From the NCBI GenBank assembly GCA_965226885.1, contig CBDDEL010000012.1, positions 160,001 through 224,000 on the forward strand: a stretch of 64,000 nt of DNA. The letters run 5' to 3'. Made by a program: the position numbers and the translations under genes. Below the pieces are notes generated by a model, which searched no databases, was not told the DNA's origin, and was given only the letters and a program-made list of their open reading frames with translations. This DNA is from Opitutales bacterium (lineage in GTDB: Bacteria > Verrucomicrobiota > Verrucomicrobiia > Opitutales > UBA2987). Below are positions 27,439 through 56,925 of this stretch, one piece after another. How positions within the stretch are numbered: the stretch's first letter is position 1; each line of letters opens with the position of its first letter.

Positions 27439-28383
27439 TTATTCCACTTCCTTCGGTTTGGTATAACTGCCCTCGTAAGGTTCACCAGTGCATTCGATTC
27501 CGCAGGTGTGCTGCAGGTTGGGAACCCGCGCTATGCATTCCAGCACGATGGGCACCGCCCCGGCGGTGATGCGTTGCACGCTGTTTTGCATGTCCTCGAA
27601 GGTGAAGGGGCGTGTGCCCACGGCAGGATTGGAGACGGAGTTGAGGAGCGCGAAATGGATTCCCAACTGTCGCGCGTAAATCGTTTCCGTGCCGACATTG
27701 TGGCTCACCCAGTCGGCCCCCATTTTGCGCATCATGCGGATTTCGGCTGGGGTCTCAAAACGGCCCGGGTCGTCCTGAATGATGACCCCGGATGTGTGGA
27801 TGCGGCCGTGATAACTCTTTTTGGCTTCTTCCATAAGCAGCCTCCGCAGGTCCGGGCAAAGGGGCACGGCAAAGTTCGGGAAAACGCCTTCTCGCACAAT
27901 GCCGGCAGCATTTAACACATTTTGCGGCCTTTGGTTGGCATAGAGGATTAAATCATCCGCGATGAGCAAGTCGTCGAAATCGTAACCGGTGTTGATGGCC
28001 CCGCCAGTGGCCCCGCCGAAGGCATGGGTGACACCCAATTGGTGCAGCGCCGCCCAGGTGGTGACAAATTCCCAACCCGTCTTCTGGTTTTCTTTTCTGC
28101 CCTCTTTCCCATGCATGCGGATATAGTAAAACGGCGTCCCCTTGTAACGCATGCGGTAAATGGGCGGGCTTTCCCCGGCCTCGGTTTGTACCGTAAAAGA
28201 GCCCTCCTCCTCCACCAAACCCTTGCCGAAATCCGGCGGGTAGCCAAAAGATGTGCCGCCCACCACCGCGATGGTGGTCTTTTCCTCGGCACCGAGATGT
28301 AACGGTATAGCCATGAAGGCCAATGCCACCAGACCCATGTGAAAAATGCAAATAAGATTTTTTTGTAGCTTCATTAATTTCAT
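27439..28383 (-). CDS. MTAP/MTIP-family purine nucleoside phosphorylase with signal peptide
   Basis: IAVVGGT, RMHG, ATGGAIN, GRFETPAEI, VSNPAVG; hydrophobic leader ending LGA|EEK. Confidence 0.82.
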   Translation of the reverse strand: MKLMKLQKNLICIFHMGLVALAFMAIPLHLGAEEKTTIAVVGGTSFGYPPDFGKGLVEEEGSFTVQTEAGESPPIYRMRYKGTPFYYIRMHGKEGRKENQKTGWEFVTTWAALHQLGVTHAFGGATGGAINTGYDFDDLLIADDLILYANQRPQNVLNAAGIVREGVFPNFAVPLCPDLRRLLMEEAKKSYHGRIHTSGVIIQDDPGRFETPAEIRMMRKMGADWVSHNVGTETIYARQLGIHFALLNSVSNPAVGTRPFTFEDMQNSVQRITAGAVPIVLECIARVPNLQHTCGIECTGEPYEGSYTKPKEVE

Positions 28384-28674
28384 AATTTCCTCCGTGTAGG
28401 TGGAACAGCCTGATTAATTCATTTCATTTGGCAATATTTCACTTGTAACTGCCCCTGCAAAATGTAGGTAGTTGTTTTAGAGCCTATGCTTGCTTAGTTT
28501 TTTCTATCTAAAATTATTGATTTGGAACGTTCCCCGATGAACGTGCCTAATATTGTCGGCTATGCCATTATCGAGATGGGGCCGAAAATTTGTTTTGATT
28601 TCACCTGAACGACTAATGTGTCGTTATTCCAGGTGAATTTAGCCGTTTTAAAAAATACCAAGCATAAGCATAAA

Positions 28675-29223
28675 ATGACTACTTCTCTTTTTGAACTCAA
28701 CACCGCCCGCCTTCGTTTAATCGCGGCCACCGCTGAAACCGTGAACGCGGAAATGAACGACCACAACCGATTGTCTCGGTTGCTGCGGGCCGATGTGCCC
28801 AAAAACTGGCCACCCGACTTGACCGAGGATGTGCTCGCATTCACGGCCCGTAAACTAAAAGCCAACCCGGCCGATACCGGCTGGTATTCCTGGTACATGG
28901 TCCTGGCCAAGGAATCGCCCGAAAACCCCGTAGTTATCGGAGTTTGCAGTTTTAAAGGACGGCCCAAGCGCGACGGTGTGGCCGAGATTGGCTATTCCGT
29001 TCTGCACCAGCATCGCAAAAAGGGATATACCACGGAAGCGGTTGGCCGTTTGCTGCAATGGGCTTTCGACCAGGGTGAGGTGAGGAAAATAATCGCGGAA
29101 ACATATCCAGATTTGCTAGCCTCGGTGCGGGTCATGGAGAAAAACGGTTTTCTCTTTTCCGGTCCCGGCTCCGAGGAAGGCGTGGTTCGCTACAGCAGAT
29201 CGCTCACTCGGGGCAGTCTTTAA
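28675..29223 (+). CDS. GNAT family N-acetyltransferase (RimJ/RimL-like)
   Basis: TARLRL, AEIGYSV..HRKKGYTTEA, SVRVMEKNGF. Confidence 0.88.
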   Translation: MTTSLFELNTARLRLIAATAETVNAEMNDHNRLSRLLRADVPKNWPPDLTEDVLAFTARKLKANPADTGWYSWYMVLAKESPENPVVIGVCSFKGRPKRDGVAEIGYSVLHQHRKKGYTTEAVGRLLQWAFDQGEVRKIIAETYPDLLASVRVMEKNGFLFSGPGSEEGVVRYSRSLTRGSL

Positions 29224-29251
29224 AAAAAGGCTGCTGGCAGATACCGTGACC

Positions 29252-31141
29252 TTACCAGACAACAGGATGGGTTGCCCCTGTTACGACATTGATTAATCCC
29301 TCCGGAGCGCCCTCGAAAGGCGCCACCAGGCACCATTTCCAGGGTGTGCAGGTGAGGAAAACGAAGATCATGCGCCGGGGCAGTCCCGGTTCGCCGATCC
29401 ACTCCATTTCGTCTGCCGCCGCATAGAGGTTGTTCAATTCTGCAGCCACCTCATGCGGCGGGCGGGCGCTCATCAATCCGCCAATTTCAAACCGCACACG
29501 GGCCGTTATGACGCCTTCGCGTACGAGGACCCAGCCGCCCCCCATGGCCGCGAGTTCGTTGACCGCCAGGGCCATGGCGTCGTCGTCGTTGCCGATTACC
29601 CACAGGTTGTGCAAATCGTGCGACACCGAGCAAGCCAAGGCCGAACGCGGTGTTTTCGGCCCCACTGTTCTCCAGAACATTTTCCCGATTTTGCCCTGGC
29701 CCGTATAACGGTCGATCAAAGCCAGTTTGGTGATCTCCTTTTCGGCCTCCGGCAGGACCAGGCCATTTTCCACCGGGAGCGTTTCGGTCAGAAAATTTTC
29801 TTCAAAATGGAAAGGTTTGAGGACGGCCGCCTGCACCGTTTTCCTGCCCTCGGGGGCGGGTATATGAAAATCCTCGGCCCTTAGTTGGCGCGGCAAATTT
29901 ATGGTCTCTCGCGCCCACTGCGGCCAATCGATTATTGGAGGATCGAGAAGGTATTTCCCGTTTTCAGCCGCCAACATGCCATCCGCGTAAACCTGTTTGA
30001 TATCGACGGTTTCGGGGTTTTCGAGCAAAACCACGTCGGCAAAACGACCGGGAGCCAAAGACCCCACCAGGTGATCGATGCCGGCGTGTCTGGCCGGGTA
30101 GAGGCTGGCCATGGCGTAGGCGGCTTCCACCGGCGCACCGCTTTTGATGGCCACCCGCAGGTTGTGGTCGGTGGTGCCGATTTCGAGGGCTTCGGCAGCG
30201 TTGCGGTCATCCGTTGTAATCGAGAGGTGCGACCAGTCTTTTATGCCCTTTTTCTTGAAGTAAGGGATGATCTGCGGCAGGGCGTGGTAGCGCAATTGCA
30301 GGAAAATTCCCCGGTTGAGCTTGTTCCAGGCTTCCTCCGCGAAACCCACTTCGTGGTCGCTCTCCAGACCGGCGGCGGCGAAGGCGTTAATGTCGCCCAG
30401 CTCTATCAAACCGGCCCCGTGCCCCTCGATGACTCCGCCGGCATCCCGGGCCGCCTGAATGACCTCCCAAATCCGGCCGGAACCGTCTAGTTCGGTGTTC
30501 CAGACCCGGGGCCAGTCCATGACTTCCCCCAATCCGATGACCCAGGGGTGGCGGGCCATATTTTCTCTGACTTCGGTGTAGCCATAGTAGCCCCCGCCGG
30601 TTTCGTAGGGCGTTGGAGGAGTGGCCGAGCCCAGTTCGGGAAAAATTTTCAAGGGGCTGCCGTGTTCCCTCGGCATCAGCCAGAACTCGACATTGTGCTC
30701 GCCGCTGACATTGGAAAATTCGTGGGAGCCTTCCACCGTCCAGGTGTTGCCGAACGGTATTACTAACGCGGCCTCAAATTCCGGTGTCAGGTGGGAGCTT
30801 TCGATATGCTTGTGCGATTCTCCGAACCCGGGAGCGGCGTAGAGGCCCTCGGTATCGACCATTTTAATAACTTCGCCAGTCCATTGGCCGGAAGGCCCTG
30901 TCCAGGCGATGCGTTTACCCTTGATCACGATATCCCAATTCTTTTGCCAGGTGAGCGTATGCACGTCTAGCATAGTGACGTGGGCCAGAATAAGGTCGGC
31001 TTTGTCCTGGCCCATGGCCACACGCATGAGATTTTGCCGAATCCGGGTTTCCTCATCAAAGGTAAAGTCTCCCCCATCGGCCCAAAGAAAGGCGGTCCCG
31101 GCCCCAATAATGAAAAGAGAAAGGATAGTGCATTTTTTCAT
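29252..31141 (-). CDS. Adenine deaminase (AdeC family) with signal peptide
   Basis: SHKHIESS, SHEFSNV, LGEVMD, EGH, SDHE, TDD, GSLAPGRFADVV, SHDLHN; leader MKKCTILSLFIIGAGTAFLWA. Confidence 0.85.
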   Translation of the reverse strand: MKKCTILSLFIIGAGTAFLWADGGDFTFDEETRIRQNLMRVAMGQDKADLILAHVTMLDVHTLTWQKNWDIVIKGKRIAWTGPSGQWTGEVIKMVDTEGLYAAPGFGESHKHIESSHLTPEFEAALVIPFGNTWTVEGSHEFSNVSGEHNVEFWLMPREHGSPLKIFPELGSATPPTPYETGGGYYGYTEVRENMARHPWVIGLGEVMDWPRVWNTELDGSGRIWEVIQAARDAGGVIEGHGAGLIELGDINAFAAAGLESDHEVGFAEEAWNKLNRGIFLQLRYHALPQIIPYFKKKGIKDWSHLSITTDDRNAAEALEIGTTDHNLRVAIKSGAPVEAAYAMASLYPARHAGIDHLVGSLAPGRFADVVLLENPETVDIKQVYADGMLAAENGKYLLDPPIIDWPQWARETINLPRQLRAEDFHIPAPEGRKTVQAAVLKPFHFEENFLTETLPVENGLVLPEAEKEITKLALIDRYTGQGKIGKMFWRTVGPKTPRSALACSVSHDLHNLWVIGNDDDAMALAVNELAAMGGGWVLVREGVITARVRFEIGGLMSARPPHEVAAELNNLYAAADEMEWIGEPGLPRRMIFVFLTCTPWKWCLVAPFEGAPEGLINVVTGATHPVVW

Positions 31142-31146
31142 TTTGT

Positions 31147-32348
31147 TCAGATAAGTGATAAACGTTGCAGAGTCCAGAATAAGGCCACCAAGCTGATAAT
31201 GGCGGAGCCGGGGATGAGAATGGCCTTCTTGAAATGCAGCCAATTGCGAAACCACCCCACGGCGCAGAAAGCCGCACAGAGCACGGCGATTTGCCCCAAC
31301 TCGACCCCGATGTTGAAAAACAAAAGAGAGGGAACCAATTCACGGCCGGAAATTTCCAGTTCCAGAAGCACATTGGCAAACCCCATGCCATGCAACAGCC
31401 CAAACAGGAAAACTACCGCCAGCCTGGTTTTACTCAAATTAGCGCGCAAAATGTTCTCCAATCCGACATAGACAATGGAAAGGGCTATGAGCGGCTCGAT
31501 CAGACTTGACGGAAGGGTAAAAATATCCAGCACGGCCACGGCCAGGGTGATGGAGTGGGCCAAGGTAAAACAGGTTACCTGGGCCAGCAGGGGTTTCCAC
31601 CGGATGGCCAGCAGAAAAAGCCCGACGACAAAGAGGATGTGGTCGAGCCCGCCCGGGATTATGTGGGTAAAGCCCAATTCAAGATATTGCCCGGCGAGAA
31701 AAACCCAGCCCATGACGGCCTCCTGCGGCTCCGGTGGCTTTGAGCCGGATGCTTCGGTTGCTTGCCCGGCCTCGGTCTCGGCCTCAGTCAGCCGGACCGG
31801 TTGCAGGGTAAACGGCTCGATTTTCTGACCGCCTTGCAGCCAGCGGGTGATGCGTCGATTTTCACCGATCGTTTTAATGGTCAGAACAATGGGCATTTCA
31901 ACCGGTATCTCAGGATCGGTGTGAAAAGAGAACGCTGCCTCATTTTGGGGCAGTTTTTCCACTAGTTGAATTTGCGTCATGGGCGCCGCCATGGGGCTGA
32001 AAAATCGTTCACTTTTCAGCTTTGGGAGGGATGCCGATACGAATTGCGGGGCCAATCTCGCCGCGCCGTAATTGAAGTGCATTCCTGCTAAAATCCGGTT
32101 CAGGATCGGATCGAGCCGCTCTTTTTGGGCCTCCGGGGGAAGGGTGGTCAATTCGTAATAAGGTCGGGGTCCGTTGAGGATGCGCGTAAGGTCGGCTTTC
32201 ACCAGGATGCGGATATCACCGGCATTCTGGTCGATTTCCACCACAATAATAGTCTTATTGAGCAAATGACCGCTGGCGGCTGGTGTGAAGACGGTCAAAA
32301 GCCCCAAACATAAGGCGGCGTAGAAAAGGGAAAAACCTCCGGCCTCAT
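31147..32348 (-). CDS. HupE/UreJ-family membrane protein with N-terminal periplasmic domain; probable 1-nt frameshift near the start
   Basis: LGFTHI..GLDHILF, FTLAHSITL, FGLLHGMGFA, FNIGVELGQ; the ATGA-coupled ATG 32348 is one base out of frame. Confidence 0.8.
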
Positions 32349-33409
32349 TGCGCGGACGGAATTTCATCCCTGTACTTTTCCCAGTTTTCCACCAATTCGT
32401 TGACGACACGGCTGCCAACCAGGTAAACATTCTCCAGGGCGGGCAAATAGGCGGAGTAACCCGCGCCATCCTTTTTCTCACCAGCCAGGCTTTGGGCCGC
32501 CGTCAATCCTTCATGGGGCATGGAGTAGTTCGATGCTGAGCGCAGGACAAGGTATCGGCGCGGATCCACTTTTTTTGCCCCGGCCAGAAAATTGAGCGAT
32601 TGATGCGTGGCGGTGTCCTCCATGGCGGCAGTAACGAAATTTCCTTTGCCCTCCGTCCAATAGGAGACCCAATCATTAGCCCATTGGGTGAGCAATTTGC
32701 CGTGCCAGAAAGTGGATGCCGCCAAGTGGTCGCCCTTCAGGACAAAGGGCGGTCGCTGCGCAATGGGGTAATTCTTATATTTGGCACGATGTTTTTTCAA
32801 TTCTTCGAGGTCTTCCAGCGGAACATCCTTGGTCAATTGATAGGCCCACTCGACCAGACCGGCGTTTAGGTGATAGACGGCTCCCTCGTTGTCCTCCTGC
32901 CGGGGGAGTTCATAGGGTTTGGATTTACGCAATGGGATGTAGCCGGTCGGCCAGTCCGCCGGAGCTTCGCGAATGTCGATTTGATGGGCGATATCGCCAT
33001 CCACCAGCCATTCGGCCCAAGCCGCCGAAGCAAGAGACATATCCGCGGGATCGACTCCGGAAATTCCCGCCACAATCCAGTAAGCCCTGCTCAGGTCGAA
33101 CCGGTCATCCATTCCCAGGGCCATAACCGAGGCCGCAGCCCTGGCTGTACCGATCCCCGTCACCAATCCCAGAACACCTTTTTCGTTGTAGCGCAAATCC
33201 CGGTAGCCCTGCGGCATCGGGAAAACTTTGTCGAGAGGGAAGCGTTCCACCCAAGTTTGAGATTCGCCGGGTCGGTCGCCGCTATCTTCCCCCGCCTCGA
33301 ACATGGTGACGACAACCACTTTGATCGGAAGCGGTTCCGCTGCCGATGGCAATACAGCCATAAAAAGCGGTAAAATGGCCGTTGTTGATAAAATGCTTAT
33401 CATTTTCAT
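32345..33409 (-). CDS. NUP ('purine nucleoside permease') family exported protein 1
   Basis: VVVVTMFE, FDLSRAYWIVAGISGVDP, FWHG, AMED, LRSASNY; signal peptide. Confidence 0.88.
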   Translation of the reverse strand: MKMISILSTTAILPLFMAVLPSAAEPLPIKVVVVTMFEAGEDSGDRPGESQTWVERFPLDKVFPMPQGYRDLRYNEKGVLGLVTGIGTARAAASVMALGMDDRFDLSRAYWIVAGISGVDPADMSLASAAWAEWLVDGDIAHQIDIREAPADWPTGYIPLRKSKPYELPRQEDNEGAVYHLNAGLVEWAYQLTKDVPLEDLEELKKHRAKYKNYPIAQRPPFVLKGDHLAASTFWHGKLLTQWANDWVSYWTEGKGNFVTAAMEDTATHQSLNFLAGAKKVDPRRYLVLRSASNYSMPHEGLTAAQSLAGEKKDGAGYSAYLPALENVYLVGSRVVNELVENWEKYRDEIPSAQ

Positions 33410-33432
33410 GGGAGTAGCTTAAATGAGCTTAG

Positions 33433-34494
33433 TCATTTCGCGGAGCCCGGTGGAGTATCTTTGTATTTTTTCCAGTCCTTGACGAGGGCGTGGACGACCG
33501 GGCTGGCCACCCTATAACAGGATTCCAGCGCCGTCAAACCTTGCGCCGGGTAGGGGGCGGTCAGGCTCCAGTCGGGGGTTTTTCCAGGAGGCTGATGCGA
33601 GTAGTTGCTAGCCGTTCTGAGCACAAGCACCCTGTTTAAATCCACCTTACCGTTTTCGGCAAGGCGGTGTAGAGCGCGCAGGGTGCCGTTGTCCTCGACA
33701 TTGGTCATCATGAAATTTCCCTTCCCTTCGGTGTATAATTTCACCCAGTCGTTGGCCCATTGATTGAGGACTGTTCCATGCCAGTAGGCGTTGGAACCAA
33801 GGCTCTCTCCCATGACCACTTTTGGCGGGGCCGACGCATTGGGAAAGCCCTTGTAACGTTTCCGAAACTCCGCCACCTCGGTGTGGTCCGTCAACTCCAC
33901 ATACTTGGTTAAATGGTAGGCCCACTCGACCAGAGATTGATTGAGCCTGAACGACATGTTGGGGTAAGTCCAACCACCGGACCTGTCATTCGGTTTTTTC
34001 CCATCGGAGGGAAAAATGCCATAAGGCCAATCCTTTGGCGCTTCCCGCGAATCGATGGAGTGGGTCAAGTCCCCGTCCACCACCCAGCGAGACCAGGCGG
34101 CGCTGCCGATGGATACATCCTGGGGGTCCCCTCCGGCAATGCCGGAAACGATGAAGTAGGTTCTGCTCAGGTCGAACCGCTCGTCCAGACCGAGGGCGGT
34201 TATGACCATGGCGGCATTAGTCACTCCCGGCCCCGTGCAAATGCCCATGACTCCCCGGTCGTTCATGCGCAGATCGTGCGGACCCATGGGAAAGGGATAT
34301 ATCTTGTCCAGTTTTTCCCTCTCCACCCAAAACTGATACTCGCCCGGCTTATCGCCCGTATCATCGCCGATCTCATACATGGCGATGACGGCCACCTTTA
34401 CCGGGATGCGCTCCTTCTTTTCGGCTCCACCGAGGGGCGCCAACACGAACAGAAGGAGAACCAGAGTTATTATTTGTTTTATCCTGTGCATCAT
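33433..34494 (-). CDS. NUP family exported protein 2
   Basis: VAVIAMYE, FDLSRTYFIVSGIAGGDP, YWHG, NVED, LRTASNY; signal peptide. Confidence 0.88.
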   Translation of the reverse strand: MMHRIKQIITLVLLLFVLAPLGGAEKKERIPVKVAVIAMYEIGDDTGDKPGEYQFWVEREKLDKIYPFPMGPHDLRMNDRGVMGICTGPGVTNAAMVITALGLDERFDLSRTYFIVSGIAGGDPQDVSIGSAAWSRWVVDGDLTHSIDSREAPKDWPYGIFPSDGKKPNDRSGGWTYPNMSFRLNQSLVEWAYHLTKYVELTDHTEVAEFRKRYKGFPNASAPPKVVMGESLGSNAYWHGTVLNQWANDWVKLYTEGKGNFMMTNVEDNGTLRALHRLAENGKVDLNRVLVLRTASNYSHQPPGKTPDWSLTAPYPAQGLTALESCYRVASPVVHALVKDWKKYKDTPPGSAK

Positions 34495-34503
34495 TTTTTC
34501 ATT

Positions 34504-35562
34504 TTAATTCTCTTCTGGGAGATGATTTTCGTAGCGGTCCCAGTTGTCCGCCAGTTCATGGAGCACTATGCTGCCGACTTTATAAGCCGCCTGTATGGCG
34601 GGCAGACCTTTTAAAACATAGGGTGCGCTGAAATGCCATTCGGCCCCCTTGCCTCGGGGCGGGGTGGAGTAATTGCTGGCCGTGCGCAGCACCATGATCC
34701 GGTCGAAATCGACTTTGCCCGATTTTGAGAGGCGTTTCAACGAGGTTAGACTGCCGTTGTCCTCCATCGCTGTCATGACGAAGTTTCCCTTTCCCTCGGT
34801 GTATAATTTCACCCAATCATTGGCCCAATTATTGAGCAGGTGCCCGTGCCAATAAGTGCTCGATCCCATGGCGTCGCCTTTCATGACGAAGGGTGGGCGC
34901 ATGGCGTTGGGGTAGTTTTTATATTGAATTCGAAACGCCTTCATTTCCGGGCCGTCTTCGATGGGATGATCCTTGGTCAATTGGAAAGCCCATTCCTGTA
35001 GGTGGGGATTTAGGTGGTAAACCACGACGGAATCGGAGGAGTGGGGCTTCCTTTCATTCGGCTTTGTGCCGCTCAATGGAAGTATCCCGTAGGGCCAATC
35101 CTCGGGAATTTCCCGCGAATCCATTTCATGGACGAGATCGCCGTCGAGGACGTATTCGGCCCAGGCCGCCGTTCCCAGGGAAGCATCTTCCGGATCGGCC
35201 CCGGCAATGCCCGCTATCAGCCAGTAGGATTTGGAGAAATCGAAACGCGGGTCCAGGCCCAGGGCCATAATGGTGGCCGTGGCATTGGTTACTCCGACAC
35301 CCGTTTCGAGAGCCAAAACGCCATTGTCGTTCATCCGCAAGTCACTTACTCCCAAGGGAAAGGGGATTACCTTGTCCAGTTTTTCCCCTTTAATCCACAA
35401 CTCCAGTTCCCCCGGGTTGCCATCATCCTGGGTTCCCCGCTCGAACATGGCCACTACCACGACCTTGACGGGTATCGGTTTGGCATCCGCCCATCCCGCA
35501 GGCAGAGCGAGAAAAGGAATCAACAAATTCAAGAACAATGGGTAAAACTTGGAATTATTCAT
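34504..35562 (-). CDS. NUP family exported protein 3
   Basis: VVVVAMFE, FDFSKSYWLIAGIAGADP, YWHG, AMED, LRTASNY; signal peptide. Confidence 0.88.
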   Translation of the reverse strand: MNNSKFYPLFLNLLIPFLALPAGWADAKPIPVKVVVVAMFERGTQDDGNPGELELWIKGEKLDKVIPFPLGVSDLRMNDNGVLALETGVGVTNATATIMALGLDPRFDFSKSYWLIAGIAGADPEDASLGTAAWAEYVLDGDLVHEMDSREIPEDWPYGILPLSGTKPNERKPHSSDSVVVYHLNPHLQEWAFQLTKDHPIEDGPEMKAFRIQYKNYPNAMRPPFVMKGDAMGSSTYWHGHLLNNWANDWVKLYTEGKGNFVMTAMEDNGSLTSLKRLSKSGKVDFDRIMVLRTASNYSTPPRGKGAEWHFSAPYVLKGLPAIQAAYKVGSIVLHELADNWDRYENHLPEEN

Positions 35563-35713
35563 AAGGACAAATTGCGAGTTTCTATTTCCAACGATTGGCT
35601 TTTACCGGAGAGTAAATGAAAAATCAAATCCTATACTTCTGCTTCGCTAAATTGTCACTGGCGCTATTTGGCGCTGGTAAATTCATTTTCCATGGATAGA
35701 CCTGAATTGCATT

Positions 35714-36651
35714 ATGAAAATCAGCTTTGAGTCCATAATCGCTTTGTTTTTCATGCCGCTGTGTCTTTTCGCGGAACCGCATTCTTCGATCCAACTGCCG
35801 GAAGGAGTGCCGGCCTCGCAGATCTGTGTTTTGGGGGGCACCAATGTTGCCAAGGCGCTCACCAGGACCGAATATATCCGCGGCTCTTTTACCATAGAGA
35901 CTCCGTTCGGAAAATCACCGAAAATTTATCATGGCGAGGTGAAGGGGGTTCCCTTTTATCATATTCCGCTGCATGGGGGCATCGAGTGGACCGGAAAAAC
36001 CGGGAGGAGATTCGCATAGCTCCCCTGCGTACCTGGTCGGCGATGCATCTTCTCGGGGTGACGGAAGTTTTGGGCGGCGCCACGGCAGGCGCCATCAATC
36101 CCGATTACAAACTGGGCGACTGGGTGGTGGCCGACGATTTTATCGATTTCAATGTGGAGCGGCCGCGTTCGATCGCCTACCAGGTATTGGGTGACGCCGC
36201 CGCCAACATTCTGCCAAGGGTCAACCCGGCCACCGACCCGCATATCGACGAGATTCTCTACCAGGCTTGTTTGAAAAATGCCAAAAGTGTCCAGGCCTGG
36301 AAGGGGGGTGTCATCGCGCAGGCGGCGGCGGGTCGATTTGAAACTGTGGCGGAAATAAAAATGATGCAAATGCTTGGATGCGATCTGGTTACGATGTCCG
36401 TTCCGACTGAGATATCCTATGCCCGGCAGTTGGGCATGAACTACGGCAGCATTATCGGCATCAGCAATCCCGCCGAGGGCCTCGGGGAATGGGGTTGGGA
36501 TACGCTGACGGATCTTTACCCGCGTTTTCACGAGCAATCCATCAAAATTTATCTCGAGGCAATTCCCAAAGTGGCTAAACTGGCGGGGGTTCCGCGGGCC
36601 GGGGACGCTCTCAGGATGCATCCCGATTTGGAACCGAAAAAGGATAAATAA
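35714..36651 (+). pseudogene. Second MTAP/MTIP-family phosphorylase with signal peptide, split by a 1-nt frameshift near 35995-36004 (may be a sequencing error)
   Basis: Frame 35714: leader, VLGGT, ETPFGKS, PLHG; continues in the -1 frame: GATAGAIN, GRFETVAEI, ISNPAEG. Confidence 0.8.
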
Positions 36652-36712
36652 TACTTACCCAATCGGTTATTGCATTATTATCGAGAGTTCCATTCTTTGT
36701 TTCACCATCATT

Positions 36713-38206
36713 ATGAAGATGAACTCAAAAAAACGATCCACTTGCAGCCCAATTAAATCCAAATTATTTCCTGGCCTGATTTTGGTTATATTATTTTTTA
36801 ACCAGACCTGGAGCGAGGAAGCCGGTTCCCTCCAGGATTTCAGTCAGATTTTTGAAACCATCAAACGGGAAGCCTCGCCGGAGGAGCTTTATACATTCCT
36901 CTACGATATGCCCAAGGGGGGCGACCTCCACCACCACCACGGCGGGTCCACCATTACCGAAGCCTGGTATAAGGTCGCCACCGATCCCGAATTGAATGAC
37001 GGCCAGCGCTATTATACCCGCAACCGGATAATGAATTGCGGGGAGGATGCCACTCCGCCGGGTTTGAGGAAAGGTTCAAAATCCCTCATGTATTGGGTTA
37101 ATATTAACGAAAGGTCCTGGCAAAAACTGAACGATTGCCCCCGCAGCGAGTATAAGCCCATCGATGAGTTGACTGACGGAGAACGCCGGGCCTGGATGTC
37201 GTCCCTCATTCTGGACCGTCCCGGCGAAAGCCAGAACGAATTCTTCGAATACCAGTTTCCCCGCATCAACGAGCTTTCCCGCAATCCCTATTTGATGAGC
37301 GAGTTGGTGGTGGACAACATGAAGCGTTTCGGGGCCGAGGGCCTGCTGTATTTCGAGCCGCAGGTAAGCGTCTTCAGTCGAAATGATAAAAATGGGAATC
37401 CCCTTTCTCCTCATCAAGTGTACAAAATTTACAAGGAACGCATCAACCGCCCCGATGCTTTGGCCACCGGGGTGACGGTGCGCTTCCAGTTAACCGTTTT
37501 GCGATTTGCTCCCGATGCTCTCGAGCGAGTGGGCCGGACATTCGAGTTTATCGATAGCCATAGAGATCTCTGGCGGGGCATCAACATGGCTGGCAGGGAG
37601 GACAATGAAAGAGGCCATCCCCAAAGGTTTACAGAAGCATACGACCAGGCCCTCCGCAAATATCCAGGAATCGGCATATCCATCCATGCGGGGGAGGAAA
37701 ACGAGCCCTCCGAACACATTATCGACACCCTGCGCCTGGGTGCCACCCGCATCGGACACGGGATCAACCTGATCGACGACCGCGACACTATGATGCTCAT
37801 GCGCACGGGCCGGTTCTTTGTTGAAATCAATCTCATAAGCAACGAGTTGCTAGGCTATGTGGATTCCATTGCCGAGCACCCGTTTCCCATATACCTTCGG
37901 CAGGGAATACCCGTCGGCCTCAGCACCGACGATCGCGGCATGTGGGATTCCAATATGACGGACGAATTTTATGTCGCCGTGACTCAATTCAACCTTTCCT
38001 GGGAAGAGATTATGAAAATTGGCAAATACAGCCTGAAGTTCTCTTTTGCTCAAACGGATGTGAAAAAGAAATTGCTGGAAGAATACCGCAAAAAGATGGA
38101 AACCTTTGCCCAAAAGTATTCCACCAGTGATTGGCGGCAGCCCCTGAAATCCGTCAAGGCCGTTACCTATGGATACGGTCAAAAACGTCTTGGCCTGAAA
38201 TTATAG
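36713..38206 (+). CDS. Exported adenosine deaminase, ADA2/ADGF-like
   Basis: MPKGGDLHHH, HAGE, RIGHG, EINLISN, STDD; N-terminal signal peptide. Confidence 0.85.
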   Translation: MKMNSKKRSTCSPIKSKLFPGLILVILFFNQTWSEEAGSLQDFSQIFETIKREASPEELYTFLYDMPKGGDLHHHHGGSTITEAWYKVATDPELNDGQRYYTRNRIMNCGEDATPPGLRKGSKSLMYWVNINERSWQKLNDCPRSEYKPIDELTDGERRAWMSSLILDRPGESQNEFFEYQFPRINELSRNPYLMSELVVDNMKRFGAEGLLYFEPQVSVFSRNDKNGNPLSPHQVYKIYKERINRPDALATGVTVRFQLTVLRFAPDALERVGRTFEFIDSHRDLWRGINMAGREDNERGHPQRFTEAYDQALRKYPGIGISIHAGEENEPSEHIIDTLRLGATRIGHGINLIDDRDTMMLMRTGRFFVEINLISNELLGYVDSIAEHPFPIYLRQGIPVGLSTDDRGMWDSNMTDEFYVAVTQFNLSWEEIMKIGKYSLKFSFAQTDVKKKLLEEYRKKMETFAQKYSTSDWRQPLKSVKAVTYGYGQKRLGLKL

Positions 38207-38355: not shown

Positions 38356-38470
38356 CTACATTGGGGCAGATTTTTCAGTCGATGAAAAGTCTGCTCATAA
38401 AATCGGGCTATGAAAGTGCGGGACGATGAATTCATTTATTTAAATCGACTCTTTGATAACTCTACTAGTT

Positions 38471-44962: not shown

Positions 44963-46258
44963 TCAGCCAATCAATAGTCCGGCCAGGTTGGCCGACATCA
45001 GAGAGGCGCAGAAAGCACCGATCATGGCGCGGATTCCCAACTGGGCCAGGTTGGTTCTTTGTCCGGGCGCAAGCACTGAAATTCCGCCGATCTGCACTCC
45101 CACCGAAACAAATGAGGCGAAGCCGCAGAGGACGAAAGTGGAAATAACGACCGCTTTTTCGGTCAGCAAGTTGCCTTGGCTGACCATCTCGGCCATGGTG
45201 GTATAGGCGACCAGGTCGTTGAGGATAAGTTTCTCTCCCAGAAGCACCCCCACTTGCAGCAGGCTATCGACATCGACTCCTATCAGCCATGCCACCGGCA
45301 TAAAAATGACGCCAAGTATAAATTGCAAGGTAAGGCTCTCGAAACCACCATCGGTAGCCTCCTTGATGACCGAGTTAAGCCCGCTGACGCCGCCCACCCA
45401 GCCGGTAAGGTCATTGAGCATGGCTACCAGAGCCACAAACACCAGAACCACCGCGCCCACATTGACCGAGAGTTTGACTCCCTGGGTTACTCCGCCCGCC
45501 ACCGCATCGAAAATATTTACCCCCATCGATTCCGTTGATACTCGCAAATCGGTTTCCACCTCTTCATGCTCGGGCAGCAATATTTTGGCGCAGACAACCG
45601 CTGCCGGCGCAGCCATAATGAAAGCGGATATGAGCCGTTTGCCCACTACCACCTGGAGGGCCGCATCGTCCCCCGCCAGAATGGAAACATAAGCGGCGAA
45701 TATCGCTCCGGCGGAAGTGGCCATCCCGCCCGCCATCAGGCAGGTGATTTCGGACCTTGTCATGCGTTCCAGATATGGCTTAACCATCAAGGGCGCTTCC
45801 GTTTGACCAATGAAGACGTTGGCGGCTACAGCCAGGCTCTCCGCGCCGGATAGCTTCATCGTTTTCTGCATGACCCAGGCAAAGGCGTAAACTACCTTCT
45901 GCAATATGCCCAAATAGTAAAGAATCGAGGTCAGGGCCGAGAAAAACACGATCGATGGCATTACCCGAAAGGCGAAAACGGCCTCGTAGGATGAATCTGT
46001 AGCCAATTCTCCGAAAACAAATTGGCTTCCTTGCAGGGAAAATCCCAACAGGTTGACGGCAAATTGGGCGATTAATCCCAGTCCATCCCCAACATAAGGT
46101 GTTTTCAATACCAGCAGGGCGATGGCGGCCTGCAGCCCAAGACCCCCAAAGACGAGGCGCCAATTGATGCCCTTGCGGTCGTTGCTGAGCCAATAGCAAA
46201 AGGCGAGTAGCGCCACTACCCCGATCAGCGCGCGGATGATTTCCAGTATCAATGCCAT
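44963..46258 (-). CDS. NupC/CNT family concentrative nucleoside transporter 1
   Basis: INWRLV, SGAESL, FIGQTEAPL, GEKLILND, LCGFAS...QIGG. Confidence 0.93.
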   Translation of the reverse strand: MALILEIIRALIGVVALLAFCYWLSNDRKGINWRLVFGGLGLQAAIALLVLKTPYVGDGLGLIAQFAVNLLGFSLQGSQFVFGELATDSSYEAVFAFRVMPSIVFFSALTSILYYLGILQKVVYAFAWVMQKTMKLSGAESLAVAANVFIGQTEAPLMVKPYLERMTRSEITCLMAGGMATSAGAIFAAYVSILAGDDAALQVVVGKRLISAFIMAAPAAVVCAKILLPEHEEVETDLRVSTESMGVNIFDAVAGGVTQGVKLSVNVGAVVLVFVALVAMLNDLTGWVGGVSGLNSVIKEATDGGFESLTLQFILGVIFMPVAWLIGVDVDSLLQVGVLLGEKLILNDLVAYTTMAEMVSQGNLLTEKAVVISTFVLCGFASFVSVGVQIGGISVLAPGQRTNLAQLGIRAMIGAFCASLMSANLAGLLIG

Positions 46259-46273
46259 AAAAACCAAATAAAG

Positions 46274-47575
46274 TTATCCTGAGATCGTCCCCACGATGGT
46301 GGCGGTAATCAAAGTTGCGCACGTTCCACCGACTAAGGCCCGAAGCGCAAGTTTGGCCAGGTTGTCCCGTTGACCAGGAGCCAGGGTTCCGATTCCGCCG
46401 ATCTGCACCCCGACAGAGGCAAAATTGGCAAAACCGCAGAGGGCAAAAGTCGAAATTAAAGTGGCTTTTGGATCGGTCATGGTGCCGTCCTTTATCATGT
46501 CTCCAAGTGTAATATAGGCAAAAAACTCATTGAGGACCAATTTTTCACCCAACAGCTGCCCAACTGCCAGCAGATTGCCGAAATCTACGCCGATTATGAA
46601 AGCGACTGGCGAAAAAAGAATCCCGAATAGAAATTGCAGGGTGAGGCCTTCATAGGCGCCATCCGTCCATGACTTGATGACGGAATTAAAGTCCCCTACA
46701 GAGCCAATCCAGGTGGTCAGAATAAAATTAATCATGGCAATCAGGGCAATAAAAACGATGAGAATGGCAGCCACATTTACAGCCAGTCGGACGCCTTGGG
46801 CGGTGCCCGCCACGATGGAATCAAAGAGGTTTAAGCCGATCGTTTCCTTGGGCACCTTCAGTTGGGTATCGACCCGCGTCGTTTCCGGGAAAAGCACTTT
46901 GGACAAAACGATGGCGGCGGGGGCAGCCATAATGGATGCCGTCAGCAGGCGTTTGCCGGCGATAATTCGCTCGGCTGGGTCGTTGCCTCCCAGGATCGCT
47001 ATATAAGCCGCCAGGACGCTCCCCGCGATGGTCGCCATGCCGCCCGTCATGAGGCAGGCAAGTTCGGACCGCGACATACGCTCCAAATAAGGCCTGACGA
47101 GAAGCGGGGCCTCCGTTTGTCCGATAAAGATATTAGCCGCGGCCGCCATGCTTTCGGCGCCGGAAAGGCGCATGGTCCGGTTCATTATCCAGGCGAAAAC
47201 AAAGACGATTCTCTGCAATATGCCCAAATAATAGAGCATGGATGTAAGGGCCGAGAAAAAGATAATTGTGGGGAGCACCTGAAACCCGAATTGCGCCCCC
47301 ATTGTTTTATCGTCCACCAGGTTGCCGAATATAAACCGCGAACCATCGCTTGAATATCGTAGAATATTGACAAACAAGCGTGAGGCCGATTCAAAGCCCA
47401 TGGCGACTATTTCCACTTTCATTACCAATACGGCAATGATCAACTGTAAGCCGAGTCCGCCCATAACCAACCGCCAGTTGATATGCTTGCGATCGTTACT
47501 CAATCCGAAGCAAAGGCCGAGTATGACCGCTACTCCAAATACGCCCCTCGCCAGGTTAACCAGAATATCCCACAT
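46274..47575 (-). CDS. NupC/CNT family nucleoside transporter 2
   Basis: FIGQTEAPL, GMATIAGSV, KLVLNEF.AY, FALCGFANFAS. Confidence 0.94.
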   Translation of the reverse strand: MWDILVNLARGVFGVAVILGLCFGLSNDRKHINWRLVMGGLGLQLIIAVLVMKVEIVAMGFESASRLFVNILRYSSDGSRFIFGNLVDDKTMGAQFGFQVLPTIIFFSALTSMLYYLGILQRIVFVFAWIMNRTMRLSGAESMAAAANIFIGQTEAPLLVRPYLERMSRSELACLMTGGMATIAGSVLAAYIAILGGNDPAERIIAGKRLLTASIMAAPAAIVLSKVLFPETTRVDTQLKVPKETIGLNLFDSIVAGTAQGVRLAVNVAAILIVFIALIAMINFILTTWIGSVGDFNSVIKSWTDGAYEGLTLQFLFGILFSPVAFIIGVDFGNLLAVGQLLGEKLVLNEFFAYITLGDMIKDGTMTDPKATLISTFALCGFANFASVGVQIGGIGTLAPGQRDNLAKLALRALVGGTCATLITATIVGTISG

Positions 47576-47589
47576 TTGAATTGAAGAGT

Positions 47590-48345
47590 TCAGGCAAAGC
47601 GGAGTTCGAGGGCTTTTTTCATCACAATGGCTAAATTAGCCTCAGCCTCATGCAGTACCGATTCGTTGGGGGTTTCCGTTTGGGTGCGGTTGACGATGGC
47701 AGAGGCGACACAGGCGGCCTTCAGGCCGAAAGTGGCGATAATCGTCAGCAAGGTGGAGGATTCCATTTCGTAATTGAGAACATTGAGCGCCTGCCATTCT
47801 TTCATGCTGTTTTGGAACTTGCGGATCACGTAGCCCTTGAAGGTATCGTAACGTTCCTGGCCCGGATAAAAAGTATCCGTCGATGCCGTAATCCCCACGC
47901 GGTATTCGAGTCCCAGTTGACGGGCCGCGTCGACGAGGGAGTTAGTCAGCTCGAGATCGGCCACGGCCGGATACTCAATGGGCGCATAGTGGGTCGAAGC
48001 CCCGTCCAGGCGAACGGATCCACTGGTAATTATGAGAGAAGGAATTGGTATATCCGGTTGAATGGCGCCGGTCGTTCCGATGCGGTAAAAATTTTTAAGA
48101 CCTAGATCGGCCAGCTCTTCCAGGGCCAGGGACGTTCCCGGTCCCCCGATACCGGTCGAACAAACCAGGACCTTTTGGCCGCAAAGTGTCGCCAGGAACG
48201 AGGTGTATTCGCGATTGGTGGCAAGAAATTTTGCATTTTCATCGAGGTATTTTGCCGTTTTTTCAACCCTGGCGGGATCGCCCGGCAAAAGAACGTATTC
48301 AGCGCCCTTGATTAAATTTTTATTTAATTGAATATGGTATTTAAT
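47590..48345 (-). CDS. udp: Uridine phosphorylase 1 (probable ATT start at 48345)
   Basis: YHI...LPGDP.R, REY, STGIGGP, RIGTTG, RLDGAS.HY, DTFYPGQERYD, NYEME. Confidence 0.92.
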   Translation of the reverse strand: MKYHIQLNKNLIKGAEYVLLPGDPARVEKTAKYLDENAKFLATNREYTSFLATLCGQKVLVCSTGIGGPGTSLALEELADLGLKNFYRIGTTGAIQPDIPIPSLIITSGSVRLDGASTHYAPIEYPAVADLELTNSLVDAARQLGLEYRVGITASTDTFYPGQERYDTFKGYVIRKFQNSMKEWQALNVLNYEMESSTLLTIIATFGLKAACVASAIVNRTQTETPNESVLHEAEANLAIVMKKALELRFA

Positions 48346-49948
48346 GGCTCTCCTTGGTTGGAATTAGTCGTCCCGGTTTGGGAAAGTCCGGCGCCGGGAC
48401 ATCGGAAAAATATTGTAGGATTACCTCGGATATCTTCGGGCTGTCCCCGCGTTTCCGGGTAATCGTCCCATTCAGGAAAGAGGAATAGAGGTCGGCCCCT
48501 TCGGCCAACAAATCCGCCACCGCAACTTTGTAAATCTGCTCTGGGTCCACAGGTTTTCCGCCGATTTCAAGATCGGTCACACGTTGACCTTTGGGGCGGT
48601 CCAGATCGTAATGGGCGATGAGTCCCGATGCCTGGATCATGCCTCGCTCAAGCGTCATCGATTGCTCGAGAACACCGAGTATATCCTTCCCGGACAGGTC
48701 CATCAAAACAACGCGATTAGGGAAGGGAAAGGCGTCGATGACGTTCCCGTAGGTTACTTCTCCTTCCGGCAAATCGGCCCGCAAACCGCCCGCATTGATA
48801 AACGCGACGTCGCTCTTGGCGGATTCACGCATGACATCGGCGGCGAAGCTGCCGAGCGAAGATTCCGTGTTGTAGCTGCGGATAAGCCTCTCTTGGAGAT
48901 GTCCCACGACGGCTTCGATTTCGGGATATTGTTTCCGGTAATGCTCGATTTTTCGCGCCACAATCGGGTGGGGGACCAGCTTTTCACTCTCTACCAGCAA
49001 CAATTTTCCATCATAGGACACTATTTTTTTGGCGGCCGTATCATATTTTAATTTGATATAACCCAACCGGGTGCCGTGACCGTAGGTTTGAACGACGAGA
49101 GTTCCTGTTTCGGGATGGACGATGGGTTCTTCCGTCCCGTGATCGGCATGTCCGCCGATGAAAATATCGATTCCGGGAACCGCTCCCACCAGTGCCAGGT
49201 CCGCCTCTACGCCGCGCTGGATTTCGGGGTGCGCCGAGGCATCGGTTTGCATGGGGGCGGTCATCCCCATGTGGGCCAGAACCACCACCAGGTCCACGTC
49301 CGGTTTGAGGTAGGCGACCGCCTCCCGGACAATGGGCGCCGGGTCGCGAAATTCCAGTTCTGCCACAAATGACGGCAGCACCACGCTGCGGGCGTCCTCA
49401 CCGATGATTCCAATCACACCGATACGGAATCTTTCTTTTTCCACGATGGCATAAGGTTGAGCGTAGGGAATATCGGTTCCTTTATAAAAAATGTTGGCCC
49501 CCAATACCGGAAAAGGAACGCGGTTTTTTTGTTTTCTCAGATTTTCCCAACCGTAGTCGTACTCGTGGTTGCCGATGGCCATGGCGTCGTAACGCATAGT
49601 GATCATCATTTCCATGAGCACTTCTCCTTGCGTGCGGTTGGAGAGCAGGCCGGTAAACATATCCCCGGCATCGAAAAGATAAACCAGGTCCTCACGGGTA
49701 CGAATTTCTTCCACCAGCGAGGCCAGCTCCGCCCCGCCTCCGAGGAAATTCACATCGTCCCGCCAGTAGGCGGGAATGGGATTAAAAGCGCTCTCGAAAT
49801 CGTTGGTGTGGAGGATGGTGATTTCACGAACAGAATCATTGAAGCCCGTTTCCGGCCAGGCGAATCCGTTTGCCAAAAATAATGCCGTAGAGGCAATTAA
49901 AAACTGGCGCCCCCGGAATAGGAAAGGGGCCCCAAAACGAATTGTCAT
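48341..49948 (-). CDS. Periplasmic 5'-nucleotidase (UshA-like metallophosphoesterase)
   Basis: LHTND, DAGD, GNHEYD, LAHMG, GGH, NAGGLR, FPFPN; signal peptide. Confidence 0.92.
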   Translation of the reverse strand: MTIRFGAPFLFRGRQFLIASTALFLANGFAWPETGFNDSVREITILHTNDFESAFNPIPAYWRDDVNFLGGGAELASLVEEIRTREDLVYLFDAGDMFTGLLSNRTQGEVLMEMMITMRYDAMAIGNHEYDYGWENLRKQKNRVPFPVLGANIFYKGTDIPYAQPYAIVEKERFRIGVIGIIGEDARSVVLPSFVAELEFRDPAPIVREAVAYLKPDVDLVVVLAHMGMTAPMQTDASAHPEIQRGVEADLALVGAVPGIDIFIGGHADHGTEEPIVHPETGTLVVQTYGHGTRLGYIKLKYDTAAKKIVSYDGKLLLVESEKLVPHPIVARKIEHYRKQYPEIEAVVGHLQERLIRSYNTESSLGSFAADVMRESAKSDVAFINAGGLRADLPEGEVTYGNVIDAFPFPNRVVLMDLSGKDILGVLEQSMTLERGMIQASGLIAHYDLDRPKGQRVTDLEIGGKPVDPEQIYKVAVADLLAEGADLYSSFLNGTITRKRGDSPKISEVILQYFSDVPAPDFPKPGRLIPTKESH

Positions 49949-49981
49949 TACCGGATGTTTAAAAAGTTTTCTCAAAACATT

Positions 49982-50009
49982 GATGCCCCGGAGAAAGCTC
50001 CGGGGCATC
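49982..50009 (-). terminator. Stem-loop between the TonB receptor and nucleotidase genes
   Basis: Perfect 12-bp stem GATGCCCCGGAG-AAAG-CTCCGGGGCATC; weak U tract. Confidence 0.55.
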
Positions 50010-50059
50010 TCGGGGCATCTAATTGAAAATGAAAGAATCGTCTTAACTCAATCCTGGAA

Positions 50060-54419: not shown

Positions 54420-54485
54420 GGATTGTTTTGGTGGGGCGATAAGCGATTCAGGAAATTTGGTTTTTTTATTTAGAGAGAAGAGGCT

Positions 54486-56788: not shown

Positions 56789-56890
56789 TGTTTGATTTCA
56801 GGTTAAATTTCAAAATTGAGTCGAAAAAATGTGAATCCCGCCGCCGGTTAAGTCAATGCTGCAGCCCGATTGGCTGGCGAAGCATAGAGG

Positions 56891-56919: not shown

Positions 56920-56925
56920 TTTCCT

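Follow-up and report, generated by a model that had tools for sequence, protein, structure and literature searches.

The 64,000-nucleotide stretch of an Opitutales bacterium genome analysed here (GenBank assembly GCA_965226885.1, contig CBDDEL010000012.1, positions 160,001 to 224,000; hereafter the window) contains at positions 27439-38206 an interval of nine genes, which on balance we favour reading as a branch of purine catabolism, for nucleosides and bases, that lies outside the cytoplasm, runs beside a cytoplasmic one and is provided with dedicated metal loading. Judging from their N-termini, the enzymes of the interval are very probably exported, and processing of purines outside the cytoplasm appears probable. 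That a HupE/UreJ-2 membrane protein encoded next to an adenine-deaminase-like (AdeC-like) enzyme docks on it and loads it with metal, as predicted by structural modelling, is nearly balanced, with doubt slightly prevailing. The joint proposal, in which the HupE/UreJ-2 protein is a dedicated periplasmic metal loader of the deaminase and the NUP family consists of secreted purine nucleosidases, is put forward tentatively. Textbook purine salvage and breakdown are intracellular, and the AdeC and purine nucleoside phosphorylase/methylthioadenosine phosphorylase (PNP/MTAP) families are usually regarded as cytoplasmic.

The list of open reading frames (ORFs) and profile searches of the window gave the following genes in the interval:

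27439..28383, minus strand: PNP/MTAP-like phosphorylase 1, predicted exported, 314 aa (PF01048); own transcription unit
28618-29223, plus strand: GNAT gene, leaderless; the only one of the nine negative by our leader rule
29252..31141, minus strand: adenine-deaminase-like amidohydrolase, predicted exported, 629 aa from the ATG at 31141 (Adenine_deam_C and Amidohydro_1)
31147..32367, minus strand: fusion of an Ang-1-like periplasmic domain with a HupE/UreJ-2 membrane domain (HupE-like), 406 aa (PF13795)
32345..33409, minus strand: NUP1, predicted exported (PF06516)
33433..34494, minus strand: NUP2, predicted exported PF06516 paralogue
34504..35562, minus strand: NUP3, predicted exported PF06516 paralogue; heads the minus-strand run
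35714..36651, plus strand: PNP/MTAP-like phosphorylase 2 with leader, frameshifted (ORFs 35714-36019 and 35761-36651)
36713..38206, plus strand: ADGF/ADA2-type adenosine deaminase (ADA), predicted exported, 497 aa (PF00962)

Five of these genes form a tightly spaced minus-strand run in the order NUP3, NUP2, NUP1, HupE-like and, last, AdeC-like, with gaps of 9 nt between NUP3 and NUP2, 23 nt between NUP2 and NUP1 and 5 nt between the HupE-like and AdeC-like genes, while NUP1 and the HupE-like gene overlap by 23 nt, an overlap also present in the 84% relative (locus L013). PNP-like gene 2 and the ADA gene lie on the plus strand, divergent from NUP3.

Leaders of the purine enzymes

Leaders were called with a crude rule of our own for the n-, h- and c-regions. 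Under it a leader must have a net charge of zero or more ahead of the h-region, ten consecutive residues free of charge that begin within the first 35 and average 1.9 or more on the Kyte-Doolittle scale, and small residues at -3/-1. Initial transmembrane helices, such as that of CNT1, are flagged too, so that hits of the rule are to be read as leader-like and not as cleaved. Eight of the nine genes were flagged as Sec-type, against a genome background of 705 out of 4096 ORFs (17%; greedy ORF calls, 150 aa or longer); the binomial tail for at least 8/9 at that rate is 5.9e-6, a figure that ignores the operon clustering of exported proteins. The flagged products are PNP-like 1 (cut HLGA/EE), NUP1, NUP2, NUP3, ADA (TWS/EE), the HupE-like protein, the N-terminal piece of PNP-like 2 (LFA/EP) and the AdeC-like protein read from the internal ATG at 31141, for which the rule cuts at 13 and inspection by eye gives LWA/DG, the leader being MKKCTILSLFIIGAGTAFLWA followed by DGG. 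All leaders of the window are of the signal peptidase I type and have no lipobox. These results bear out the starting observation of a sequence-only reading of the interval, namely that seven proteins (the AdeC-like enzyme, both phosphorylases, ADA and the three NUP proteins) begin with Sec-type leaders, whose N-termini are as it had quoted them.

The start codons deserve attention, as the AdeC-like reading frame extends without a stop to a GTG at 31255, the extra stretch running into the last part of the gene upstream, whose stop codon lies at 31147-31149. For the AdeC-like protein and for its 84% relative, the database gene calls (P0001 and P0002) have MKK as their N-terminus. In the alignments, the catalytic domains of solved relatives begin past the hydrophobic stretch: residue 33 of the AdeC-like protein aligns to residue 20 of 3nqb, and the domain of PNP-like 1 starts at residue 37, equivalent to residue 11 of human MTAP (1cb0), leaving about 26 extra N-terminal residues. 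The hydrophobic N-termini could in principle be start-codon artefacts of cytoplasmic proteins, an explanation that we regard as very improbable. It is favoured by the in-frame Met38 and Met42 of the AdeC-like protein, where database call P0003 starts, and by the existence of some leaderless homologues. Against it, the first conserved residue of the domain comes after the leader in 8/8 genes, most homologues offer no start between leader and domain, leaders recur at 50-90% overall identity though the leader sequences themselves differ, and leaderless paralogues of the same genome begin right at the domain.

Leader-bearing relatives and the leaderless set

The same rule flagged 102 of 120 AdeC-like homologues, 103 of 120 PNP/MTAP-like homologues, 99 of 120 NUP homologues and 55 of 76 full-length relatives of ADA. 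Many of the misses, those of NUP among them, are truncated calls or leaders of the lipoprotein type, to which the rule gives no score. Leaders are thus conserved in orthologues, and these do not in general start downstream of the hydrophobic stretch, the finding that had been named as fatal to the idea of export. Other export signals occur as well. Lipoboxes such as LLGAC/S are present in AdeC-like proteins of Alteromonas and Paraglaciecola, and twin-arginine-type leaders (MNRRQF...) in two PNP-like homologues of the gene at 27439-28383 (P0167 and P0171), a sign that some lineages may export the enzyme in folded form.

The enzymes had been described as normally cytoplasmic, a description that fits the AdeC-like and PNP/MTAP-like proteins and not the NUP or ADGF/ADA2-type proteins, for which export is the family norm. 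Two of the four enzyme types, NUP and ADGF-type ADA, are exported by family habit; animal ADGF/ADA2-type deaminases are secreted. In the literature searched, subscription journals lying outside its scope, we found neither the exported AdeC-like and PNP-like clades nor the pairing of deaminase and HupE-like protein, nor any paper on a periplasmic, secreted or extracellular adenine deaminase or on a periplasmic adenosine deaminase, purine nucleoside phosphorylase or nucleoside hydrolase.

The genome (5.48 Mb in 17 contigs) also encodes leaderless counterparts, found by tblastn and ORF reading: an AdeC on contig C13 (27% identical), a PNP on C15, an Add on C16 and two NUP paralogues that begin straight at the domain, with a further ADA-like gene on C12. 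The canonical PNP of C15 lies in a cluster with a phosphopentomutase-type gene (deoB), a pyrimidine nucleoside phosphorylase and an NCS2 permease. Beside this cluster, on the opposite strand, stands a leader-bearing PNP-like paralogue, one of three further such paralogues in the genome, and no leader is present on either of the PNP_UDP_1 genes that neighbour the CNT transporters of the window. The separate leaderless enzyme set indicates that the organism keeps two parallel sets. At the locus of the canonical AdeC (L097, C13:110000-124000), genes for a TonB-dependent receptor (Plug domain) and for a membrane-like protein of 530 aa that matches no Pfam family come after the leaderless gene, and this may be a second purine uptake locus.

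Export might also carry the enzymes further, to the cell surface or the medium by secretion, as surface lipoproteins or in vesicles, where they would condition the surroundings by removing adenine and adenosine or feed bases to the cell. The lipoprotein-type leaders of several AdeC-like and NUP relatives would fit such a location, and the papers naming fungal NUP proteins, judging by their titles, concern secretion or extracellular vesicles. A motive for removal outside could be found in the slower growth of SAR11 cultures at higher doses of adenine, reported in the available text of PMC11698098. We nevertheless consider a surface role unlikely for the window proteins, whose leaders are of the signal peptidase I type without lipobox. 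Moreover, the partner of the deaminase is an inner-membrane protein with a periplasm-facing domain, and if the modelled contact between them is real, the enzyme would have to be periplasmic.

Candidate activities of the exported enzymes

The AdeC-like protein matches PF13382 (Adenine_deam_C, E 3.7e-34) and PF01979 (Amidohydro_1, E 5.5e-13) and stays under the equivalog cut-offs of TIGR01178 (288.2 vs 472.5 bits) and NF007457 (218.9 vs 768). Its best solved relative is 3nqb (E 2.8e-55), annotated as Agrobacterium 'adenine deaminase 2', with which it shares the two-domain layout and the aligned HxH, E, H, H and DD motifs. H110, H112, E206, H241, H263, D311 and D312 are invariant in 35 AdeC-like sequences, and the HxH pair, bridging Glu, two His and Asp among them we take to be the ligands of a two-metal site. 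A further likeness to AdeC lies in the purine-base context of the leaderless orthologues, two of which (Bradyrhizobium L080, Acidoferrales L033) have an NCS2 nucleobase permease directly downstream. The window protein differs from AdeC in its Sec leader (replaced by a lipoprotein leader in some relatives), in its identity of about 27-30% to canonical enzymes, in its score below the TIGR01178 cut-off and in the HupE/UreJ-2 neighbour typical of leader-bearing forms.

The species genome collection has relatives of this protein at 560 places; 79 of these were examined, and many had a leader. In the gammaproteobacterial locus L041 the gene order is AdeC-like, HupE-like, NCS2 permease, NUP and two phosphoribosyltransferases, which reads as cleavage outside, deamination outside, import of hypoxanthine and salvage. 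Four Opitutales loci (L013, L023, L024 and L026) combine HupE-like, AdeC-like, ADA and NUP genes. A different arrangement was observed in Acidobacteria and Eisenbacteria (L033-L038, L020, L029), in which a leaderless AdeC-like gene stands back to back with an AdeC paralogue of 28-31% identity.

PNP-like 1 and the downstream piece of PNP-like 2 belong to PF01048 (E 6.5e-19 and 3.8e-23, respectively), the fold family of trimeric PNP and MTAP (1cb0, human PNP). Aligned with the canonical PNP of the genome, they keep the motifs GGT, IRMHG, GGATGG, RFET and SNPA (in trimeric enzymes GGT, R-x-H-G, A/T-G-G, F-E-T and S-N-P), and in place of the canonical MSTVPE loop copy 1 has SHNVGTE and copy 2 has TMSVPTE. 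Their Glu and Asn are, we assume from the roles known for human PNP and MTAP, the mark of 6-oxopurine PNP, MTAP having Ser/Asp in their place; because of this pair, inosine or guanosine is the more likely substrate as far as sequence can tell. PNP-like 1 scores below every NCBIfam equivalog cut-off (MTAP 83.9 vs 274.85 bits; PNP NF006054 60.4 vs 218). Both genes, previously labelled 'MTAP-like', thus look PNP-like, and the earlier label misleads. Differences from the trimeric enzymes are the leader, the sub-threshold scores, the altered loop of copy 1 and the reaction itself, since phosphate-dependent cleavage outside the cytoplasm would be unusual.

Moreover, the two phosphorylases previously counted are one intact gene and one broken by a frameshift. 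Frame 1 of PNP-like 2 stops at 36017-36019, and homology resumes one base back near an A5 run at 35995-35999. An assembly error was considered and dropped, as contigs of three studies agree in spanning the site without gap (X1 record 2, possibly from the source sample, and X3 record 5 and X5 record 9 from other studies). The gene is absent from its position in the 84% relative L013 and in a relative of about 87% in run X1 (joint 35646 to 36726). The frame could be regained by a -1 slip on A-AAA-A; since the A run is just five long and the gene is missing from close relatives, decay of the gene is a likelier explanation than programmed -1 slippage.

ADA matches A_deaminase PF00962 (E 5.9e-36, 124.6 bits vs a cut-off of 27) and aligns over residues 55-467 with positions 66-476 of the 479 of TIGR01431 (ADGF), at 90.8 bits against a cut-off of 315. 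Its solved relatives are the Plasmodium-type ADA 6ii7 and the ADGF-type AMP/adenosine deaminases 9nte, 9nti and 3lgd, and by profile layout and these relatives its sequence is probably of the ADGF/ADA2 type. The apparent likeness comprises leader, N-terminal extension and deaminase core, with MPKGGDLHHH of the window protein aligned to MPKGAALHLH of 9nte; the differences are its bacterial origin and the low TIGR01431 score. Only 66 cluster representatives among 1.84 billion proteins are related to it at better than 1e-30.

All three NUP proteins match PF06516 far above its cut-off of 27 bits (376, 361 and 364 bits; E 1.5e-112, 8.7e-108 and 9.5e-109 for NUP1, NUP2 and NUP3); NUP2 is 48% identical to NUP1, and NUP3 gives a weak match to futalosine hydrolase TIGR03664 (E 9.9e-5). 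The AlphaFold2 model of NUP1 (pLDDT 82.3, pTM 0.84) is a soluble alpha/beta protein with no membrane-spanning helix past the leader, and its top Foldseek matches listed are all methylthioadenosine/S-adenosylhomocysteine nucleosidases (MTAN) or futalosine hydrolase (E ~1e-10, TM(target) 0.65-0.76), which argues against the function of permease that the family name implies. The catalytic pattern of MTAN consists of Glu12, Met173-Glu174 and Arg193-x-x-Ser196-Asp197. At matching spacing, a likeness at the level of motif, NUP has the invariant residues E38, M263-E264 and R290-x-x-S293, with Asn294 next. NUP differs from MTAN and futalosine hydrolase in being about 120 residues longer and exported and in lacking sequence-level resemblance, the Protein Data Bank (PDB) giving no sequence match for either NUP1 or the NUP profile.

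The term 'permease' originates from yeast complementation. The available text of PMC9431476 describes that CaNUP of Candida lets an adenine auxotroph grow on adenosine and does not confer toyocamycin sensitivity; a nucleosidase acting outside the cell would account for these data no less well than a transporter. According to the accessible part of PMC7880944, a proximity probe targeted to the lumen labelled a NUP of cyanobacterial origin. The family is large (4123 matches among 8000 scored candidates), and the label 'purine nucleoside permease' is probably wrong for it. No paper on an enzyme activity of bacterial PF06516 or purine nucleoside permease proteins was found in the literature searched, judging by titles and abstracts.

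The substrates of AdeC-like, PNP-like and ADA are putative, given their scores below equivalog cut-offs, and the exported module could instead act as a filter of modified or toxic purines, protective or signalling, and not in bulk catabolism. Nucleoside antibiotics, methylated adenines, cytokinin-like bases and methylthioadenosine would be candidate substrates. The sub-threshold scores of all three enzyme types would be expected from such a specialization, as would the loop SHNVGTE of PNP-like 1 in place of MSTVPE; many PhyH/2-oxoglutarate dioxygenases lie nearby, and marine phytoplankton exude adenine, guanine and methylthioadenosine (PMC11698098, text seen in part). We find a filter role improbable, as the catalytic motifs are canonical, the leaderless AdeC-like orthologues sit with ordinary nucleobase permeases and phosphoribosyltransferases, and the ADGF-type ADA and the PNP-like proteins with their 6-oxopurine pair fit a plain route through adenosine, inosine and hypoxanthine.

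A candidate HupE/UreJ-2 partner of the exported deaminase

The gene at 31147-32367, missed in the sequence-only reading, encodes a conserved partner of the exported deaminase, with a HupE_UreJ_2 domain (PF13795, E 3.2e-47, 160.5 bits vs a cut-off of 24.5). The protein is built of a leader, a nearly invariant His34 (AAS G/HLLN), a domain of about 165 residues, a linker and the PF13795 membrane domain. H34 comes directly after an A-x-A-type site and occurs in 90% or more of 32 sequences, and H235, D242, H243, H271 and H326 are conserved in the membrane domain. The AlphaFold2 model (pLDDT 85.8) has seven helices, and its top Foldseek match is 9gce (E 4.5e-7, TM(target) 0.64, 16% identity), a copper-bound Ang-1 domain from a HupE/UreJ-2 protein, followed in the list by the periplasmic zinc-binding proteins ZrgA and PA4063. 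Searching the PDB with the family profile gave no sequence match, 9gce included, all rows being at chance level.

According to the accessible text of PMC12537917, the Ang-1 and HupE/UreJ-2 proteins ('anglerases') capture metal ions with His1 and feed them to the permease. The window protein shares with them the leader, the N-terminal His, a periplasmic domain modelled as a beta-sandwich, the linker and the PF13795 domain with conserved His and Asp, and by analogy with this family may bind a transition metal. It differs in having no sequence-level match to 9gce and in the client enzyme proposed here, as against the uptake proposed there. Adenine deaminase or amidohydrolase is mentioned 0 times in the main text of that paper (supplements being outside the scope), whose reported neighbour genes encode unknown proteins, DUF4198, indigoidine-A-like and PfkB proteins.

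The presence of the partner follows the presence of the leader. In 79 loci fetched with the AdeC-like family, a profile hidden Markov model (HMM) built from the first HupE-like hits found a HupE-like gene in 42. Of the 78 AdeC-like genes tabulated, the window included, 43 leader-bearing ones had enough flank and 41 of them had a HupE-like gene within 600 nt, compared with 0 of 29 leaderless ones; two leader-bearing and four leaderless genes more had too short a flank. In the two leader-bearing exceptions the locus does contain a HupE-like gene, at a distance of 3.5 or 7 kb, and the loci of leaderless forms, found in Rhizobiales, Acidobacteria, one Eisenbacteria bin and three verrucomicrobial bins, gave no weaker HMM matches either. 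Three over-extended ORFs on which the motif anchor failed (L017_2280, L024_8693, L079_9149) were left out of the table, and six leader calls were set by eye (L025, L069 and L022_7299 as leader; L034, L053 and L075 as none).

Residues 21-629 of the AdeC-like protein, its mature form, were modelled together with residues 34-200 of the HupE-like protein, its Ang-1-like domain, and the predicted complex had ipSAE values of 0.82, 0.81 and 0.81 in three runs, as against 0.00, 0.00 and 0.01 in three controls, at least 96% of contacts being common between runs and the pLDDT of the partner at least 84. For calibration, 58 of 80 solved complexes attain the ipSAE mark, as do 2 of 110 mismatched pairs, counts that are only rough here, as our own alignments were used. 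On the partner side, the predicted interface comprises residues 34-36 (the mature His and its neighbours), 61-67, 152-158 and 172-182, overlapping the conserved motifs D59-L60, FEEP159 and R175-x-L177. On the enzyme side it comprises 243-246, 264-270 and 313, beside H241, H263 and D311. Of the interface positions, only 266 and 577 are nearly invariant in the exported forms and not in the leaderless ones, residue 266 of the window protein being the minority Gly. The score supports a putative binding between the two proteins.

Alternatively, the HupE/UreJ-2 protein could be a co-expressed metal importer or product channel that makes no contact with the deaminase, the complex score being an artefact. 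The published model of metal capture and uptake (PMC12537917, accessible text) agrees with an importer, passing a score calibrated with other alignments is no proof, and the interface positions have neither extra conservation nor an exported-specific pattern. We consider this rather unlikely, although less so than a surface or filter role, for an importer would be equally useful to cytoplasmic orthologues, and yet the gene is near 41 of 43 exported and none of 29 leaderless forms. Furthermore, the controls remain at 0.00-0.01 vs 0.81, and the predicted contact would put the region of the mature N-terminal His at the metal site. PDB sequence searches gave only 3nqb for the AdeC-like protein and nothing real for the partner profile, so that no solved complex of the pair is known to us.

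A proposed periplasmic route

In the route that we propose, nucleosides would enter the periplasm, possibly via a nearby TonB-dependent receptor and 5'-nucleotidase, and ADA would convert adenosine to inosine and ammonium. NUP, with its nucleosidase fold, and the PNP-like enzyme would then split nucleosides into base and pentose or pentose phosphate, the AdeC-like enzyme would turn adenine into hypoxanthine and ammonium, and ammonium, hypoxanthine and sugar would be taken up. The Sec-exported deaminase presumably crosses the membrane unfolded and metal-free, yet needs a two-metal centre. The Ang-1-like domain could dock at the mouth of its active site and hand over the metal, which the HupE/UreJ-2 membrane domain would supply or capture. 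A comparable arrangement is the TerC metalation of Sec-exported Mn enzymes in Bacillus subtilis, where, in the part of PMC10550928 available to us, a membrane metal-transport protein serves enzymes exported unfolded; TerC is of an unrelated family, general and not dedicated to one client, and without a tethered His-first domain, so that the proposed likeness is one of mechanism only.

Given the real and recurring leaders, the other export signals in relatives and the leaderless parallel set, an extracytoplasmic purine branch is the simplest reading, and to this extent the module first proposed stands, with some of its labels changed and one of its genes recognized as broken.

Several observations weigh against this reading. 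The leader rule does not separate a cleaved leader from a signal anchor, and an internal start at Met38 or Met42 could give a cytoplasmic form of the AdeC-like protein. Truly leaderless members exist within the AdeC-like (for example P0018, P0030 and P0031) and PNP-like (for example P0146, P0172 and P0173) clades, so that export is a trait of lineages and not of families. The enzyme assignments are affected by the sub-threshold equivalog scores of AdeC-like, PNP-like and ADA, and by Asn294 of NUP, which sits where we take the catalytic Asp of MTAN to be; judging from these residues NUP may bind nucleoside rather than cleave it. Periplasmic phosphorolysis would give ribose 1-phosphate, for which no uptake route was seen here.

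Other such points concern the partner. The accessible text of PMC12537917 proposes metal uptake, not delivery to an enzyme. Conservation at the AdeC-like interface is not enriched (0.62 vs 0.74 elsewhere), and exported and leaderless forms have the same consensus at 23 of 40 interface positions vs 353 of 555 others. The association of leader and partner is phylogenetically clustered, with at least four changes of the leader and at least five of adjacency on the tree, and three independent pairs, of which about two are concordant and none opposite, too few for significance, give a sign-test median p of 0.5; the tree comes from a quick LG+G4 search and is rooted on a very long outgroup branch, with a long-branch warning. 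Within the order, the HupE-like protein was matched in 19 of 81 sampled genomes, its N-terminal domain also in just four of those 19 (the genome of the window included), and a genome of the same genus (G051, 93% complete) has no HupE-like match. These scattered matches and the lack of one in the same genus make the trait patchy.

Genomic setting of the module

The exported module is one arm of a larger nucleoside-use island, whose principal genes outside the interval, identified by Pfam, N-termini and the leader rule, are:

44963..53242, minus strand: two CNT/NupC-type transporters, leaderless PNP_UDP_1, 5'-nucleotidase with leader, TonB-dependent receptor

In all, Pfam matches in the downstream window comprise a TonB-dependent receptor, the leader-bearing 5'-nucleotidase, three CNT/NupC transporters, leaderless phosphorylases, PsuG-like and PfkB pseudouridine-type genes, a PhoD phosphatase and five PhyH/2-oxoglutarate dioxygenases. 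The best protein matches are named as marine Opitutales, such as Candidatus Moanabacter and Coraliomargarita. A search of sequencing runs for this DNA listed none of RNA, an outcome that is neutral as to expression.

The five dioxygenase genes (PhyH/2OG-Fe(II); 38453-39349, 42875-43828, 43907-44917, 56761-57918 and 59309-60190) are leaderless and interleaved with nucleoside transporters and phosphorylases, and their products may hydroxylate nucleosides or bases. The PfkB kinase and indigoidine-A-like (PsuG-type) genes of the island occupy 53466-55406. Both families are among the frequent neighbours of Ang-1 and HupE/UreJ-2 genes listed in the accessible text of PMC12537917, and this correspondence hints at a wider link between the carrier class and nucleoside catabolism.

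Mobile elements are also present around the module. A DDE_Tnp_1_4 insertion sequence occurs in several copies (40327-41660 and 15301-16671 in the window, and at L096, C15:194000-207500); the copy directly after the module is split over two frames, and one of the leaderless NUP paralogues is flanked by two copies. IS21-type and DDE_3 elements occupy 6839-10910. After the ADA and PhyH genes, an alpha/beta hydrolase with leader is encoded at 39373-40239, whose top NCBIfam row is a quorum-quenching lactonase, far under its cut-off.

Implications

Purines are described as a traded currency in the ocean in the accessible text of PMC11698098. If the conserved exported set is real, marine and soil bacteria would strip purine nitrogen and sugar before uptake. 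If the NUP proteins are secreted nucleosidases, the yeast complementation behind the family name would have to be reinterpreted. Supplying exported metalloenzymes with the right metal is an open problem (PMC10550928, in its available part), of which the deaminase and its carrier would be a specific case, the predicted interface placing the metal-binding end of the carrier at the metal site of the enzyme. If this is true, the Ang-1-like and HupE/UreJ-2 class would obtain its first client enzyme, and a Gram-negative counterpart to TerC-dependent exoenzyme metalation would come into view.

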